Made by a program: the position numbers. This document shows positions 12,001-21,000 of a DNA stretch of 64,000 nt, piece by piece. The stretch comes from Chlamydiota bacterium. Lineage in GTDB: Bacteria; Chlamydiota; Chlamydiia; Chlamydiales; RGXB01. Positions within the stretch are counted from its first letter, which is position 1, and every line of letters begins with the position of its first letter. The stretch lies in the NCBI GenBank assembly GCA_947494155.1, contig CANLTW010000003.1, positions 1-64,000 of the forward strand, given 5' to 3'.

Positions 12001-15000
12001 GTCCCGTACCAAACTCTTGCCGATCTCACACCTCAAAGTGTTCTCAAAGTCGAACTTGATCCTAAAAAAGTCTACCTTACTTTCCAGGGACAAATTCTTC
12101 GCCGCGGAGAAATTGTCGAATTTGATCAACAACTTTTCTTCAAAGTTTTGGAATAGATGGCCCAATTTTATCACGAGCCTACAGTCCCTTTATATGTTGC
12201 TTCGGTCAATACTGACCTTCCTGTAAAAATTGGACCCTTTAGGATCGAAAAGCTTTTGACCACAGGAGCCCTTTCTCGCCTTTACTTGGGGATACACGAG
12301 AGTAGCCGCCAACTTGCAGTACTGAAAGTTTTGAGTTATGACATCCTTAAGGATTCGTCGCGCAAAAAGATATTCCTTAAAGAGGGTTCGATCCTAAAAA
12401 ATCTGCAACATCCAAATATCGTCCACTACCTAGAGGAGGGAGAGTTTGAAGAGGGACTCTACATCGCTGTCGAATTTGTCCAAGGGATCTCTTTAAAACA
12501 GTTTATTTTACAACGCTCGCTCTCTTTAAAAAGATCGATTGAGGTGATCACAAAAACGCTGTACGCCCTACTGTATCTCCATTCAGTAGGGATCGTACAC
12601 AGAGATCTCAAACCAGAAAATATTCTCATTACCGAAAACTCCGAGGTCAAGTTAGTCGATTTCGGTATCGCAGCGTCTCAGGAGGAATTGATCGAAGGCC
12701 CTCTCTATGGGACCCCCTCATACATGCCTCCAAACGAAAAAACCGGGATAAAAAAAGTCGACTTCCGCACAGATATTTATGCTGTAGGAGTCATTTTCTA
12801 CGAGTTAATTTTGGGTAAAGTCTCTTTTGGAAGGGTGAATCTGGACTTGGTTCCCAAAAATCTACGCCCCCTTGTTAAAAAAGCTACCGAACAGGATCCT
12901 CTTAAACGGTACCAAGATGTGATGGAGATGATTCTAGATCTTTCGGTTTATCTGAAAGAGAATCTTATTTCAAAAGATGAAAGTTCAGAGGATACCCTCA
13001 AGGATCTTTTGGAGAGTATTGAAAAGAGTAAACAGTCGTTGATTCTCCCCGTTCCGGAGATGTTGATGGATCTTTCTATCGATGTAGTGGTTTCATCCCA
13101 TCCTAAACAATTTACCTATGCCCTTCTACACCATACCTTACCCGACGGCTCCTACATAGGGCTTATGGCCTCTTGTCCTGCAAATGACATGCATCACCTT
13201 TTAGAACTCAAAACAATTATCGAGAGAGCAAAGCTCCTTTTAGAATGGATGACAACAAAAAATGAATTTTCCCTGTCCCAATTTTTAGAAAGGTTAGAAA
13301 AAGGGATTCACCACATATGCCACCTGCAGCTACTTCATGCCAGCACAACGGCCAACCTTTTTCACCTGTTTTCTTACGGCAATACTACACTCGCCCACCA
13401 CTCGTTTGCGGCAAAAACACCCCGTTATCTTGAAGCTGGCGGCCGTTTCTTTGGTGAAGGGGGCCCTTTACCAAATCCCATACAGGATCGCCTAGACTCT
13501 TTGGATACACTCATTCTCGGTATCGATGGCACTAAATTAGCCGTTGACCCTTTATTTAAAGAAAGCTTTGACAAGTCTTTTTTTCAGAACCAGGTGCTAG
13601 GGGAGTGTCCAGCTGCCCTGGTGATACAAAGAATCGACTAAAATTCCAATACGCCCCATCCCTAAGGATCTTTATTTGTTTTTAACAACTCCCCTCTTTA
13701 TACTAGCAGTAGTTTTAAACCCCTTTTGAGAGTGCTCTCCTCTTATTTTCTAAAAAGAGCCCCTCATCCACAAAATACGCATAATACATCGTGAATAGTA
13801 TGATATTTATTTTTTTAATTTTCTTTTCCCTTTTTTCCTCTTGTCCCAGTGACCCCCAGCTCCCCTCTGACCAAATCAGAGTTATTGTTTTCGATTTTGG
13901 AGAGGTTATGGTGAAAAAAAACTTTGACCCCCTAGCCCAGTTTTTAGCTACAGAGCTGGATATCACGTTTGAACAGGGGAAAGCTATTTTAGTAGAAAGG
14001 GAGGAGGCGCTGTTACGCTCCGAGTCAGAAAAACTTTTTTTCAAAAACGTTTTCCATAATTTTGGAAAAGAGGTCCCTCTGCAATTTTATAAAAAATTTA
14101 GAAAAAAAATGGTGGACTGCATTTTTTTTGACAAAAAGGTCGTTGAAATTATTGAGAATCTTAAAGAGCAAAATAGAAGGGTGATCCTTTTTTCCAACAC
14201 CGAAAAGCACAAAGCGGATATTTATAGAGAATTGGGCTACTACGCCCCTTTTGATCAACTAGTTTTGTCCTACGAAATAGGGATGAGAAAACCCCAAAAA
14301 GCCGCCTACGATTATGTGGAGAAGCAGGCCCACTTTTTACCGCATGAGGCCCTATTTATTGATAATAAAATAGAAAATGTCCTCCAGGCCAAGAAAAATC
14401 ATTGGAATGCTCTGCTATTTTCGAGTCCAGAGCAGCTTAAAAAAGATTTAGAGGAGCTTGGATTTTGTTTTGACCAAGATTTTACACAAAAAAGGGGAGA
14501 ATAGCAGCTTATCTATTTTGTTTTTTTTCCTTTTTTTAATGCCCATTTGATGGTTACGAACATTTTCTAAAGAGCTCTATTGCAATAATTAAGAGTTTTT
14601 TTTATGTAGGGGGATATGGTGCCGGCCTTTAAAAAATGTATACTCTTCTATTGCATTGCAGCGTCGATCATCCCCTATGGACTCGACGCCTGGGGTCGCC
14701 CTAAGCAAAAAATTTCGCGCGAGTCGCGCTATAAAATCAACTTCAAGCAGGTCAAAGCAGAAGAGTTTTTACAATTCTTAAGCGAAATCGCCGGTCTGAA
14801 TTTCGTGTACAACCCTTCCGACCTTAATTTCTTCATAAATTTGGTTTCGGATGAAGAGATGACGATTGAGACTATCGTTTCGGGATTTGTACAAACCTTA
14901 AGGATTCAGGGCTTCAATTTACTTGAAGAGAACGGTACTCTCATTATCCATCGAAGCCAAGACATCAAAGAGATGCCTATGCTTTTGAACTCAGAGACAG

Positions 15001-18000: not shown

Positions 18001-21000
18001 GCTCGTTGCAGTGGATTCGTGTGACAAATTCCTTGGTTGCTACCGGCGATCCAACAACTTTGCAAAAACTCAAAGAGATTATCGCCTCTGTCGACATCCC
18101 TCTCAAACAGGTATTTATCGAGGTTCTTGTTATCGAGACCGATACTACAAACACCCTTGATGTGGGTCTTAGATGGGGTGGTTATTCTAACTTTAAAGGG
18201 AAATTTGCCGGTGTGGGTTCAAATTACCCGCGAGTCGATTCAACAGACGGCGTGACTTTTCAGGATACTGTCAAAGGGAGCTCGACAACTGCCGGTTCCT
18301 CGTCTTCAGGGGTAAACGCAGTTAACGGCCCCTCTCCAAACCTTTTCAATACCCTCTCAAGCGGTCAATTAGGGATTATTGGGGATATCATTTTTCACGG
18401 TGGAAAATCCTATCTAACTTTAAGCTCGCTATTAACAGCACTTCAAGAAGAGGCGCGCATCACGACTGTGCTGAATCAAAAAATTATGGCTCAAGACAGC
18501 CGCATGTCCCAAATTTTCGTTGGGCAAAACGTCCCTTTTACTGGCTCAATTATCACCACATCGGGGATTTCACAATCTACCAACGCTAACTTGGAGTATC
18601 GCAATATTGGTGTCTCACTAAATATTACCCCAAATATTGGTGACAATGGTATCATCACTTTAGAGATTGATGAAGAGATTACTGAGGAAGCGAATACTGG
18701 AACGGAGGGTGATGCGGTAAATACTCAAGCTGTTGCAGGGATTAGAACGAAGAAAAGCAGCATGCAGACTCGGGTCCATGTACCTGATAAAGCATTTGTA
18801 GTGCTCTCCGGTCAGATCCGTAATACGCAAACAAAAGCTAAATCCGGTCTACCTTGTTTAGGCGGTCTTCCCGTGATTGGAGCTGCTTTCAGCCAATCGT
18901 CCAGCAACGATGCGCTTTCCGATATAATCATCTTCATTCGACCCGAAATCATCCAAACCAGCGATCAATGGAAAGAAGTGAGTGAGCAACAAGAAGATAT
19001 CGTTCGTGAACAAGGAAATCCCGAGGCATTTGATCGAGCCGTCGATCTTGTCAAAAGGGATTAATCGGTTTTCTTTTTTCTTTTTAAGTTTTCTTTTGGG
19101 CTGCACCTCGGTGAGTGAGGAGATCAATCCCAGTGTCCATTATAGCGTCCACGAGAAAATGATCCAATCTCTGCCAAGCGCCTTTACCCCTTTAACGCAA
19201 AATGAACTGGAAAAAACCTGGGCTACCGAGTATCGCATGGGCCTTTTTTTTGCTAAAAAGCTGGACCTTTACAGAGCCGTGACCTCTTTTCAGCGGGCCG
19301 AGTTTCTCTTAAGTGAAGAGCCTAATCCTGTCCTTTGCATGGATAGAAAACATGAGGTGGAGTACTACACGCTCTTATGCTACTCACTGGGAAAAAGGCA
19401 TGAAGACCTTGTGACAACATTCGAATCCTCCTCTTTAGCTTTTGTCAACCCGGACTTTAAGGCCTATAAAGATCTGTTACTAATCCTAGGAGAGGCCTAT
19501 GATGCGACCAAACAAAAACATAAAGCTTTTAGTGTCCATCAAGCGCTTGCTCAAAATTACCCCAAATCGGCACAAGCGGTGCTTATAGGTAGCGCATTAC
19601 AAACAGCTGACAACAAGACGGCTCTGGCGATTCTCCATCAGGAAAAGGGGGAAATTCTTACGCATGAGGTCTCGATCCAAAAAGCCCTCTCTCAATCAAT
19701 GCATCCCCACCACTTCTTAGCTTACGACCAACTTGAGGAGCATAAAACGGCTAAACTTAAATCTGTTATAGAACAAACACACACCTCTTATCTTGCTCAA
19801 AAAAAGTCCCCCTTTACAGCACAAATGCTCGGGGTTATTCCGGGGGGAGGCTATGCCTACCTGGGGCAGTACCAATCGGCAATCACCGCTTTTTCGGTTA
19901 ATGCTCTCTTCATAGGAACTGCAGCCTATTTCTTTTTGAACGGCAACGTCCCTGCAGGTGTTTTAACCACAAGCTTTGAAGCGGGTTGGTATTTTGGAAG
20001 TATTTACGGAGCAGGACAAGCGGCTAAAACCTACAATGAGCGCCTTTACGAGGCTTTAGTCCACCCCGTTATGGAAGAAAAAAAGCTTTACCCCTTACTG
20101 CAGTTGGAATATGGTTTCTAGCTTACTTATTTTTTTGGCGATCAAAGGGTATGTCGAACCTTGGGGAAAAGATAGCGCTCTTGCAAAAAAACCGATCCCA
20201 AAAGTTGTCTTGAAAGAGAGTGAGGGCTTTTTTGGGAAAACTTTGGAGAACATCATTTTATTTCACCAAGAGGTGCTCTCCCCGATCGACGGCCCCAGAA
20301 GCCATTTTAGACCCACTAGCTCCCGCTATACTCTTTTGAGCATCCGCCGTTTTGGCCCTTTAAAAGGGTGGCTGAAAGGGATGGACCGGCTGATGCGCGA
20401 AAATAGCGACCCTTGGGTGTACCGCACAATCTTGATAGACGATATCGAGTACAAGTGGGATCCCAGCTACGAAACGCCCCCTTGAGCGGTTCTACCAGCC
20501 TACCGCACCTCCACCATAAAACGCCCCCTTGAGTGGTTCTACCAGCCTACCGCACCTCCACCATAGTTGAGAAGAGGGCCTCTTTGGGAATTTTCACACA
20601 CTCAGTCCTATCATCATTCACCCCCATGCTGACAAAGAAATTGTCGCTATTTTGCCTTATTCCTACAGGGTAGAGGATTTTCTTGGGATTTTTAAACAGA
20701 TGGTAGGCTCCCGGATAAGAGAGGGGTTTGATGGTCAATCGCTTTAAAAGAAATGGGGGAGAAGAATCAAAAGCATATGCTCCCACAAAATAGACGTATC
20801 GGTTCCAGGAGACATATGAGCGGGTAATTCCGGAACGGATGTGAAAAAATCCCACATACTCTCCATTACACTCCACTGCGGGAGTCCCCCCCGAAAGTTT
20901 TGGAGTTTCTCCAGGTATAAAGAGCTCTTGTTTAGTCAAAATCTTACAGTATCCATCCTCTTGGTACTCTAAAACAGTCCAAGGATTTGTCTCGTAAAGG

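Follow-up and report, generated by a model that had tools for sequence, protein, structure and literature searches.

Introduction

The closest described counterpart of the gene analysed here is CdsC of Chlamydia trachomatis, a 921-aa protein encoded downstream of cdsN, cdsO, cdsP, cdsQ and pknD, which has been assigned by cryo-ET as the outer-membrane ring of the injectisome (sections of PMC4682100). The same sections state that chlamydial CdsC exceeds the other type III secretion system (T3SS) secretins in size through extra periplasmic domains, and passages of PMC3459982 describe its pore and N-domains as type II secretion system (T2SS)-like and place it, by ancestry, in the GspD family. A 'unique 250-residue N-terminal domain' has been described for the C. 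trachomatis protein. The GspD, PulD and XcpQ secretins are themselves built as N0-N1-N2-N3-secretin, with three N-domains after N0. Another relevant system is YscP (SctP) of Yersinia, a secreted tape measure whose residue number sets needle length; needle length is linear with SctP size, as stated in parts of PMC4682100 and PMC2835726. Finally, long secretins of Simkaniaceae and Rhabdochlamydiaceae, among them the 1764-aa 'secretin N-terminal domain-containing protein' of Simkania negevensis, share 38–47% identity with the protein described below over its last 570 aa; they have 14 or more modules, mostly old and diverged.

We analysed a 64,000-nt stretch of the genome of an uncultured freshwater chlamydia (hereafter, the window) that encodes a 1482-aa secretin. 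In contrast to C. trachomatis CdsC, this protein has 13 recognisable N-domain modules, six of which come from a near-identical tandem triplication, its gene differs in copy number among close relatives, and its N0 domain lies at the very N-terminus. It shares domain types and folds with GspD but carries 13 N-domains instead of three, and it resembles the long Simkaniaceae and Rhabdochlamydiaceae secretins, although its repeated copies are 84–97% identical.

Gene cluster and domain layout

The secretin gene lies downstream of cdsD, sctN, sctO, the ORF at the needle-ruler position, sctQ and a kinase gene, all on the same strand:

3129-4823, + strand: CdsD/SctD inner-membrane ring gene, 564 aa (Pfam Yop-YscD_cpl, FHA, CdsD_PD1, CdsD_PD2, CdsD_C)
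6456-7760, + strand: SctN ATPase (Pfam ATP-synt_ab, T3SS_ATPase_C)
7757-8263, + strand: YscO-like stalk gene (Pfam YscO-like)
8347-9633, + strand: ORF at the needle-ruler (SctP/CdsP) position, 428 aa (follows the YscO-like gene and lies between sctO and sctQ)
10966-12156, + strand: SctQ-like gene, FliN C-terminal domain (Pfam FliMN_C)
12157-13641, + strand: Ser/Thr protein kinase (Pfam Pkinase)
14616-19064, + strand: CdsC/SctC-type secretin gene, 1482 aa (ORF call; Pfam Secretin, Secretin_N and N0; gene order)

Within the secretin gene, the following parts were delimited:

14736-14939, + strand: N0 domain, aa 41-108 (PF21305, E 4.7e-7, 30 bits against a cut-off of 27)
15024-15905, + strand: four diverged N-domain modules preceding the repeat, aa 137-430 (custom module HMM; aa 137-197, 201-266, 277-350 and 357-430)
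15921-16397, + strand: repeat unit 1, aa 436-594, two N-domain modules (TRF, unit alignment, module HMM)
16398-16874, + strand: repeat unit 2, aa 595-753, two N-domain modules (unit alignment, module HMM, AF2/Foldseek)
16875-17351, + strand: repeat unit 3, aa 754-912, two N-domain modules (unit alignment, module HMM)
17367-18101, + strand: three diverged N-domain modules past the repeat, aa 918-1162, the last abutting the secretin domain (module HMM)
18438-18956, + strand: secretin pore domain, aa 1275-1447 (PF00263, E 7e-33, 114 bits against a Pfam gathering score of 27.5; coordinates recovered a second time)

The Pfam Secretin_N family (PF03958) matched 10 stretches of the protein (252 bits, E 2.7e-76), the best being aa 361-431. 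The custom module HMM recovered the 13 modules, each of which aligns with the others, separated by linkers of 3–16 residues. The AF2 model of repeat unit 2 (mean pLDDT 83.9) comprises two beta-alpha-(alpha)-beta-beta-alpha domains; with this model, Foldseek returned T2SS secretin N-domains as the top 13 matches and as 16 of the top 17, the Salmonella injectisome ranking 14th. A PDB profile search gave GspD at 5.4e-8 and MxiD at 0.053. The proposal, made in an earlier note on this DNA, that each 159-aa unit holds two ring-type N-domains is therefore upheld by Pfam, the module HMM, AF2 and Foldseek alike.

History of the repeat array

The earlier note had also reported a 1482-aa frame containing an in-frame 477-bp unit three times, and the ORF call, TRF, the unit identities and a lag scan all bear this out. 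TRF places the array at 15923-17335 (period 477, 3.0 copies, 92% matches, score 2376). The three units are pairwise identical at fractions of 0.893, 0.906 and 0.836 in protein and 0.922, 0.916 and 0.864 in DNA, and differ pairwise at 37–65 sites. Compared with itself at a 477-nt lag, the sequence has an identity of 0.7–1.0 over ~15901-16860 and of 0.13–0.40 elsewhere, and the array is therefore far beyond chance. The difference pattern and a best-register scan located the most recent event:

16086-17039, + strand: newest duplication, two 477-nt copies (16086-16562 and 16563-17039)

These copies differ at 13 sites (97.3% identity), and their register is ~165 nt off the unit boundaries. Between units, dS is 0.37–0.63 for the older duplication and 0.04–0.09 for the recent one. 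The two-module unit has probably expanded in frame through unequal homologous recombination: an older duplication produced two units, and a later duplication of a 477-nt segment, offset by ~165 nt, the third. Judged by dN/dS between units (0.14–0.39), the repeat units are under purifying selection, and that this holds for every unit argues that the extra modules are used.

Unit number in the genus and module number across chlamydiae

A secretin match was found in all seven genomes of the genus searched. Open frames of 1173 aa (G001) and 1178 aa (G005) correspond to one unit and a frame of 1335 aa (G004) to two, while G002 has at least three units. The gene is broken at contig ends within the repeat in G002 and G003, and in G006 a 100-N gap together with a change of frame interrupts it. 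The genus search therefore recovers the pattern given in the earlier note (frames of these three lengths, and three genomes with the gene broken at the repeat), and unit number does vary among sister species, relatives having one, two, or three or more units. In the 19-member P0007 cluster, 10 of the 15 listed members are complete 1327-aa sequences with two units; two assemblies give 1484 aa and three 1482 aa.

Over the phylum sample, the open frames of the secretin are between 1097 and 2287 aa long, with large differences even within a genus (e.g. 1427 versus 2282 and 2287 aa). Among 121 secretin homologues, we counted 8–24 modules, a number that correlates with protein length (r 0.955, 78 aa per module). 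Pairs of modules sharing 80% identity or more are present in 8 of the 108 homologues outside the genus, and repeat modules group by species, not by position. The idea that the feature is peculiar to the window's gene did not hold: arrays of 8–24 modules and recent duplications are widespread in non-Chlamydiaceae chlamydiae. Unit copy number changes between species, and probably within the window's species too.

Co-variation of secretin length and ruler-position ORF length

The ruler-position ORF also contains a repeat of its own:

8881-9125, + strand: tandem repeat within this ORF, in frame, 2.6 copies of a 96-nt (32-aa) unit, 89% matches

The rule by which this ORF was selected yields the published 283-aa CdsP in Chlamydia-like genomes (Pfam DUF5421, E 5.7e-199). 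The ruler-position ORFs of environmental chlamydiae gave no Pfam match; in BLASTP the comparison with CdsP was not significant (E 0.31), and hhalign gave an alignment of the two C-terminal domains whose E value was 0.0085 but whose probability was only 4.7%. Sequence homology of the environmental ORFs to CdsP is therefore weak and not demonstrable.

The lengths of the two proteins are linked: chlamydial secretin length co-varies with the length of the ORF at the needle-ruler position, an observation that is new. In a convenience sample of 55 genomes (the ORF rule dropped 8 of 60 fetched loci), the correlation was 0.81 with a slope of 0.29. It was 0.78 for genus means (n=32), 0.81 for family means (n=13) and 0.70 when centred within genera. 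Phylogenetic contrasts on a YscO tree, built on ~165 columns, gave r 0.66, slope 0.26 and p 4e-8; among the 28 contrasts in which the secretin changed by 70 aa or more, 20 had the same sign, and none of 2000 tip shuffles attained the observed r. No co-variation was found for three controls: r was 0.10 for the short secretin paralogue (n=43), -0.04 and 0.08 for genome size, and 0.06 for CdsD (slope 0.005, n=48). CdsD is constant at 560–620 aa while the secretin spans 1100–1800 aa. The relationship has exceptions. Within the window's genus the ruler ORF is not monotonic (377 aa with one unit, 486 aa with two, 428–460 aa with three), genus g37 shows no change (a 1128-aa secretin with a 322-aa ORF, 1307–1341 aa with 319–332 aa), and single outliers pair secretins of 1599 and 1435 aa with ORFs of 374 and 244 aa, respectively.

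What the extra modules may do

The periplasmic part of the secretin is a chain of 13 short-linked N-domains between the N-terminal N0 and the C-terminal pore. We propose that each module would most likely add one further ring stacked coaxially beneath the pore, and each unit would make the basal-body neck longer by two rings. The needle would then have to lengthen to emerge from the cell, which fits a ruler-position ORF that grows with the secretin. As in YscP/SctP, a length-setting component would be resized by internal repeats, and the ruler-position ORF of the window both carries such a repeat and scales with the secretin; the secretin, however, forms a structural wall, whereas YscP/SctP is a secreted tape measure. 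The periplasm widens locally around chlamydial injectisomes: in elementary bodies it measures 28.6 nm at the pole that bears the T3SS, compared with 13.8 nm at the other pole (passages of PMC4336559). A longer neck could therefore be accommodated. We regard this account as a whole, i.e., an injectisome secretin with recombination-expanded N-domains, a neck lengthened ring by ring and a ruler ORF that follows, as reasonably probable. The lengthening of the neck put forward in the earlier note gains indirect support from the co-variation with the ruler-position ORF, the physical lengthening itself being our inference. The note's suggestion that the neck matches envelope width is not directly supported, and the T2SS secretin stays at 781–787 aa across the genus while CdsC changes.

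The repeat could instead be real and the extra modules slack, either looped out, folded back as an outer wall, or acting as a compressible spring, recombination among the repeats then changing copy number almost neutrally. Linked periplasmic domains give the basal body flexibility, with a contraction from 34 to 29 nm (Nans et al., in sections of PMC4682100). The steady length of CdsD, the inner-ring partner, and the lack of a steady rise of the ruler-position ORF with unit number in the window's genus also point this way. In addition, fully stacked arrays of 13–24 rings would demand an unusually wide periplasm: a secretin ring is ~3.5 nm high, and 13 rings would need more than 45 nm and 24 rings ~80 nm, a range for which we found no report in the literature searched. 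However, the dN/dS values on every unit speak against neutral ballast, and linkers of 3–16 residues allow little slack. The Foldseek matches are moreover the same N-domains that stack coaxially in solved secretins; to our knowledge, all solved secretins stack their N-domains in this way. The ruler ORF also scales at 0.26–0.29 aa per secretin aa, whereas the three controls do not. We therefore consider slack unlikely and retain the ring-by-ring lengthening of the neck as the preferred reading.

Copy number in assemblies and reads

A tandem repeat of 92–97% identity could be mis-counted, the true gene having two or more than three units. Four assemblies carry a two-unit form of 1323 aa at 99–100% identity, exactly one unit shorter. 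In the 1482-aa cluster, six of nine members are fragments, five of which start within the repeat; unit-specific residues are shuffled in P0128, a three-unit assembly; and three of the six relatives are broken at the repeat. Against a mis-count, the secretin measures 1482 aa in three assemblies, where it lies on contigs 125, 293 and 402 kb long, and the 37–65 differing sites suffice to tell the units apart.

Reads addressed the worry about copy number raised in the earlier note. Runs X1 and X3 come from separate studies. In both, the unit 1-specific and the unit 2-specific unitigs each have ~1x the flank depth (14.8 and 21.5 against 17 in X1; 7.5 and 10.5 against 11.7 in X3), and the unitig shared by these units has ~2x (39.7 and 22.5, respectively), depths compatible with three copies. 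The other two runs differ: the shared unitig has ~1x depth in X2, and a 419-nt repeat piece has ~3x depth in X10. In none of the four runs does a read or contig cross the whole array; all break at 16112 and 17187. Given this, the two-unit assemblies and the shuffling in P0128, the count and phasing in the window rest on assemblers and rough unitig depths. The differences of one, two and three units between species come, however, from diverged, easily assembled units in many assemblies, and we judge an artefact quite improbable.

Relation to type II secretins

Automatic annotation and NCBIfam would name the 1482-aa protein a type II secretin. It passes the GspD equivalog TIGR02517 (415.2 bits against 351.35) but not the SctC equivalog TIGR02516 (76 bits against 238.45, in the C-terminal part only), its homologues are often named 'type II secretory pathway component GspD/PulD' at source, and GspD structures are the best match to its N-domains. 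The low SctC score is in line with the descent of the chlamydial T3SS secretins from those of the T2SS, an ancestry already published (passages of PMC3459982). A GspD unrelated to the injectisome is scarcely credible, as the gene closes the cdsD-sctN-sctO-sctQ-kinase cluster with T3SS genes and no GspE or GspF beside it, the Chlamydia-like genomes G018 and G012 have a secretin match on the same strand as YscO and ~5 kb downstream of it, where it is a documented T3SS secretin (sections of PMC4682100), and a separate 778-aa secretin on contig 1 adjoins GspE, GspF and a pseudopilin. The identification as an injectisome secretin is thus supported by gene order: the protein is GspD-type by sequence and the chlamydial T3SS secretin CdsC by gene order, and from orthology we infer its place as the injectisome outer-membrane ring.

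Secretin ring number and basal-body length

The slope between the two proteins would correspond to ~20–23 ruler residues per added ring. A ruler residue spans 0.15–0.19 nm, which would give ~3–4 nm per ring, near the height of a secretin ring. We found no description in the literature searched of secretin domain number setting basal-body length. Tentatively, and with slightly less than even confidence, we suggest that in chlamydiae N-domain ring number is an evolvable, quantal setting of basal-body length that changes through unequal recombination in the tandem module repeats, the needle ruler co-evolving with it. The 84–97% identity of its copies suggests that the gene of the window is a module expansion caught while happening. 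If the suggestion is correct, this gene would represent such a step under way, perhaps still polymorphic among lake populations, and species with 23–24 modules would build basal bodies several times longer than any imaged.

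The injectisome secretin contains a tandemly triplicated unit of two N-domains

The long secretin gene lies at the end of a cluster whose order is CdsD, TPR chaperone, SctN ATPase, YscO-like gene, a 428-aa ORF, carbonic anhydrase, SctQ-like protein, Ser/Thr kinase, HAD hydrolase and secretin. The following features of this region are used below:

3129-4823: CdsD gene, with the Pfam domains CdsD_PD1, PD2 and C
8347-9633 (+): ORF of 428 aa at the place of the needle ruler (SctP/CdsP), after the YscO-like gene (the ruler-position ORF)
8881-9125: in-frame tandem repeat in the ruler-position ORF, 96 nt (32 aa) x 2.6 copies, 89% matches
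9742-10407: beta-carbonic anhydrase gene, after the ruler-position ORF and before the sctQ-like gene
13791-14504: HAD hydrolase gene, between the kinase and secretin genes
14616-19064 (+): long secretin (CdsC), a single long ORF of 1482 aa
15923-17335: tandem repeat array in the secretin gene

The SctQ-like protein bears a FliN C-terminal domain, and the neighbourhood is that of a chlamydial injectisome cluster. The earlier note had called the protein an injectisome secretin. This label holds by position and orthology, but by sequence family the protein is GspD-like: it scores 415 bits with the NCBIfam GspD equivalog (cut-off 351) and only 76 bits with SctC (cut-off 238). The GspD-type result is explained by the origin of chlamydial T3SS secretins, which, according to PMC3459982, were recruited from T2SS secretins. 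The genome (G000; 1.41 Mb, 24 contigs) has three secretin-domain genes. Behind the 778-aa one on contig 1 come genes for GspE, GspF and a pseudopilin, and it therefore encodes the T2SS secretin. The third is an orphan short secretin of 451 aa (contig 17, L029:1936-3291, minus strand), which comprises N0, one N-module and the pore and shares ~50% identity with CdsC over the latter's C-terminal part; its neighbours are genes for an S9 peptidase and an MFS transporter. All 7 members of the genus have such an orphan, of 417-488 aa, and many other chlamydial families contain short paralogues of 517-614 aa.

Pfam places a GspD-like N0 domain at residues 41-108 and the pore (secretin) domain at 1275-1447 of the 1482-aa protein, with 10 Secretin_N stretches (E 2.7e-76). 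Alignment by eye and with MAFFT revealed 13 modules of about 75 aa sharing one common pattern, and an HMM built from them places 13 domains separated by linkers of 3-16 residues. Tandem Repeats Finder reports one array, at 15923-17335 (period 477, 3.0 copies, 92% matches, no indels, score 2376). Cutting it at residues 436-594, 595-753 and 754-912 gives three 159-aa units with identities of 89.3%, 90.6% and 83.6% at the protein level and of 92.2%, 91.6% and 86.4% at the DNA level. Compared with itself at a lag of 477 nt, the sequence has an identity of 0.7-1.0 from about 15901 to 16860 and of 0.13-0.40 in the flanks. These data confirm the three-unit 477-bp repeat described in the earlier note and demonstrate an in-frame tandem triplication. 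An AlphaFold2 model of unit 2, computed from an 11-row alignment of units from the genus, has a mean pLDDT of 83.9 and consists of two beta-alpha-(alpha)-beta-beta-alpha domains with a linker of low confidence between them. With this model, the top 13 Foldseek matches in the PDB are N-domain structures of T2SS secretins (ExeD, GspD, XcpQ, EpsD); a Salmonella injectisome ranks 14th, and PulD and further XcpQ chains follow down to rank 17. A sequence profile search of the PDB retrieved GspD chains (5.4e-8 to 1e-3) and MxiD (0.053). By the predicted fold and both sets of matches, each unit comprises two secretin N-domains.

The repeat expanded recently and its copies are under purifying selection

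The differences between the units are unevenly placed: 30/37 differences between units 1 and 2 fall within the first 161 nt, and 34/40 between units 2 and 3 lie beyond nt 170. Unit 2 is therefore a mosaic, which is the outcome expected of a shifted-register duplication of 477 nt in a two-unit ancestor. A register scan identified the best copy pair at starts 16085-16091 (13 differences, 97.3% identity), and this shifted-register copy suggests that the array may have expanded through unequal homologous recombination. The older duplication has Nei-Gojobori dS values of 0.37-0.63, the recent one of 0.04-0.09. Since dN/dS is 0.14-0.39 in all unit comparisons, every copy is held under purifying selection. 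An antisense ORF of 333 aa (16059-17060, minus strand) lies entirely within the repeat; it is most likely an accident of the repeated stop-free antisense frame and not a gene.

Depth of metagenome unitigs was used to examine the count of three. Twenty freshwater or lake metagenome runs from 11 studies hold at least 0.59 of the sampled words, and Logan contigs of four runs were compared. In these four runs no contig spans the array, all ending at 16112 and 17187.

Depth of Logan unitigs in two runs from different studies
Run; flanks; unitig common to units 1 and 2 (16150-16260); unit-1 piece (16295-16408); unit-2 piece (16772-16885)
X1; 17.4 / 16.4; 39.7; 14.8; 21.5
X3; 11.8 / 11.5; 22.5; 7.5; 10.5

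Rough as unitig depths are, the pattern in X1 and X3 fits three units in both populations. In run X2 the unitig common to units 1 and 2 is at about 1x (7.6 vs 7.4 and 5.7) and cover is zero at 16660-16911, which fits two units or a mixture. Run X10 holds a more diverged lake strain, in which a 419-nt piece (16627-17045; end of unit 2 and start of unit 3) is 25.9 deep while the flanks are at 8.2 and 9.3, a hint of more than three units. P0128, one of the three-unit assemblies, departs from the window at just four residues, all of them unit-discriminating, which could reflect gene conversion or a phasing error of the assembler. Three is the likely count in the window genome, and unit number probably varies within the species.

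Unit number differs between close relatives

The gene was found in 7/7 genomes of the genus. Open frames are 1173 aa in G001, 1178 aa in G005 and 1335 aa in G004, and module parsing gives 9, 9 and 11 modules, that is one, one and two units, in agreement with what the earlier note had deduced from their lengths. In G002 and G003 contigs end within the repeat, the pieces of G002 showing at least three units. In G006, the closest relative (L016, G006:C13:7725-15378), a 100-N scaffold gap and a frame change lie inside the repeat, and this genome was rejected for unit counting; it holds three units, or four or more. The B-type modules on either side of its gap overlap in register, which means four or more units or an overlap left unmerged.

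A protein search gave 535 matches among 7998 scored candidates, of which 120 were listed, and was complemented by a cluster look-up. The 1482-aa form is present in three assemblies, on contigs of 125, 293 and 402 kb. Among the matches listed, a three-unit form of 1484 aa, 89% identical to the window protein, occurs in two assemblies, and a 1323-aa form of 99-100% identity in four. The P0007 cluster has 19 members, 15 of which are listed, and 10 of these are full-length sequences of a two-unit form of 1327 aa. Exactly 159 aa are missing from the 1323-aa forms, at one of two junctions: P0003 and P0129 have the deletion after residue 588-613, P0004 and P0005 after 652-680. The form in P0004 and P0005 has the structure expected of the two-unit ancestor. 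In a module tree, the repeat modules of a species group together, whatever their position, with support of 100/93 (P0007 pair), 98/93 (P0006 triple) and 94/85 (P0001 triple); the expansions were therefore independent or have been homogenised by gene conversion. Taken together, these results demonstrate that unit number differs between species.

Long N-domain arrays are the rule outside the Chlamydia-like family

The C-terminal 570 aa of the secretin were matched at E 1e-60 or better in 183/200 scored genomes of the phylum, and long open frames among the matches listed range from 1097 to 2287 aa. The module HMM found 8-24 modules in 121 proteins, and length tracks the number of modules (r 0.955), with 78 aa for each. 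Pairs of modules that share at least 80% identity are present in 16/121 proteins, and in 8/108 outside the window's genus. Lengths also differ within genera, such as g12 (1272-1689 aa) and g72 (1427 vs 2282 and 2287 aa). Module number therefore varies widely and repeatedly across chlamydiae; long variable arrays are the rule outside the Chlamydia-like family, and the window gene is a young, clean example. In g72 (G152, G197, G134), the two species with secretins of 2282 and 2287 aa have CdsD proteins of 662 and 632 aa and ruler-position ORFs of 670 and 700 aa, vs 577 and 511 aa in the species with the 1427-aa secretin.

Secretin length co-varies with the ruler-position ORF

Should added rings make the basal body longer, only a longer needle can reach out of the cell, and needle length follows the size of the SctP tape measure according to PMC4682100 and PMC2835726. 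We located the YscO-like gene in 196/200 genomes and took ~3.3 kb downstream of it in the 60 genomes for which both its place and the secretin frame were listed. As the ruler-position ORF we took the first one of 150 aa or more whose start lies within -60 to +150 nt of the YscO stop. This rule or a contig end removed eight loci (G136, G187, G129, G167, G141, G104, G176, G146); ORFs of G081 and G143 were trimmed to the YscO stop, and G000, G001 and G004 were added, giving 55 genomes, a convenience sample. In Chlamydia-like genomes the rule picks a 283-aa protein with Pfam DUF5421 (5.7e-199), 283 aa being the published length of CdsP.

CdsP is treated in PMC10448858 as restricted to Chlamydiaceae and the family that is sister to them, the ruler gene being regarded as absent elsewhere, yet the rule yields a positional counterpart in 42/50 loci examined from other families. 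These environmental ORFs are linked to CdsP by position alone: BLASTP against Chlamydia CdsP gave nothing significant, they had no match in Pfam, their profile retrieved only low-complexity K/E-rich matches from the PDB, and with hhalign the C-terminal domains align with CdsP at E 0.0085 but at a probability of only 4.7%. In many f9 genomes, an ORF of about 220-230 aa also lies behind the ruler-position ORF.

Length of the secretin vs length of the ruler-position ORF
Data; n; r; slope (aa per aa)
All genomes; 55; 0.81 (p 4e-14); 0.29
Genus means; 32; 0.78; 0.28
Family means; 13; 0.81; 0.23
Genus means centred within family; 26; 0.77; 0.35
Centred within genus; 23; 0.70; 0.22
Felsenstein contrasts; 54 contrasts; 0.66 (p 4e-8); 0.26

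The two lengths co-vary at every level. The contrasts were computed on a quick ML tree of YscO proteins (about 165 columns); their r was reached in 0/2000 tip shuffles, and where the secretin changes by at least 70 aa, 20/28 contrasts agree in sign (p 0.036). A general drift to long proteins or large genomes is rejected as the cause by three controls. The short secretin paralogue is uncorrelated with the long one (r 0.10, n=43). Genome size follows neither the secretin (r -0.04) nor the ruler-position ORF (0.08), the partial r being 0.82. CdsD hardly varies in length (r 0.06, slope 0.005, n=48), and is 55-85 aa longer only in two genomes with ~2285-aa secretins. The ruler-position ORF does not respond to secretin length in genus g37, and there are single outliers. 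In the window's genus, one-unit species have the shortest ruler-position ORF (377 aa), and species with two and three units have 428-511 aa, unordered; a simple dose relation with unit number within the genus is rejected, the series 377, 486, 428-511 aa not being monotonic.

A slope of 0.26-0.29 corresponds to about 20-23 ruler residues per 78-aa module. YscP spans about 1.9 Å per residue, a helical residue 1.5 Å, and a secretin N-ring is about 3.5-4 nm high. With these spacings the slope amounts to about 3-4 nm per module, which agrees with one ring per module. The 96-nt repeat of the window's ruler-position ORF sits in its K/E/H-rich middle region; with in-frame repeats in both genes, both length-related components can change stepwise.

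Discussion

The sequence-level finding is solid, and its structural consequence is a prediction that imaging can test. Each module would form a ring stacked beneath the pore, and the basal body and the local periplasm would lengthen with added modules. A lengthened basal body is feasible because the chlamydial periplasm widens at injectisome arrays, from about 14 to about 29 nm according to PMC4336559. The earlier suggestion that the neck matches general envelope width is not supported, as throughout the genus the T2SS secretin keeps a length of 781-787 aa.

It is already published that chlamydial CdsC is oversized and T2SS-derived and that its periplasmic domains give the basal body a flexible length (PMC4682100, PMC3459982); at 921 aa, C. 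trachomatis CdsC far exceeds the other T3SS secretins in size, according to PMC4682100. In the open-access papers searched we did not find described near-identical tandem or copy-variable repeats of secretin N-domains, copy-number differences between close relatives, a range of 8-24 modules, or co-variation of the secretin with the ruler-position ORF. For annotation, such long secretins are widely labelled GspD or "hypothetical", and assemblies often break or collapse inside them.

Chlamydial injectisomes are unusually long and contract on host contact. For two open structural questions, what sets the length of a trans-envelope machine and in what way the N-domain rings of secretins stack, chlamydiae provide a natural graded series, which runs from 8 up to 24 modules and in which sister species are exactly two modules apart. 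As a second component, the ruler-position ORF tracks the secretin, and makes the question of how length is set directly measurable.
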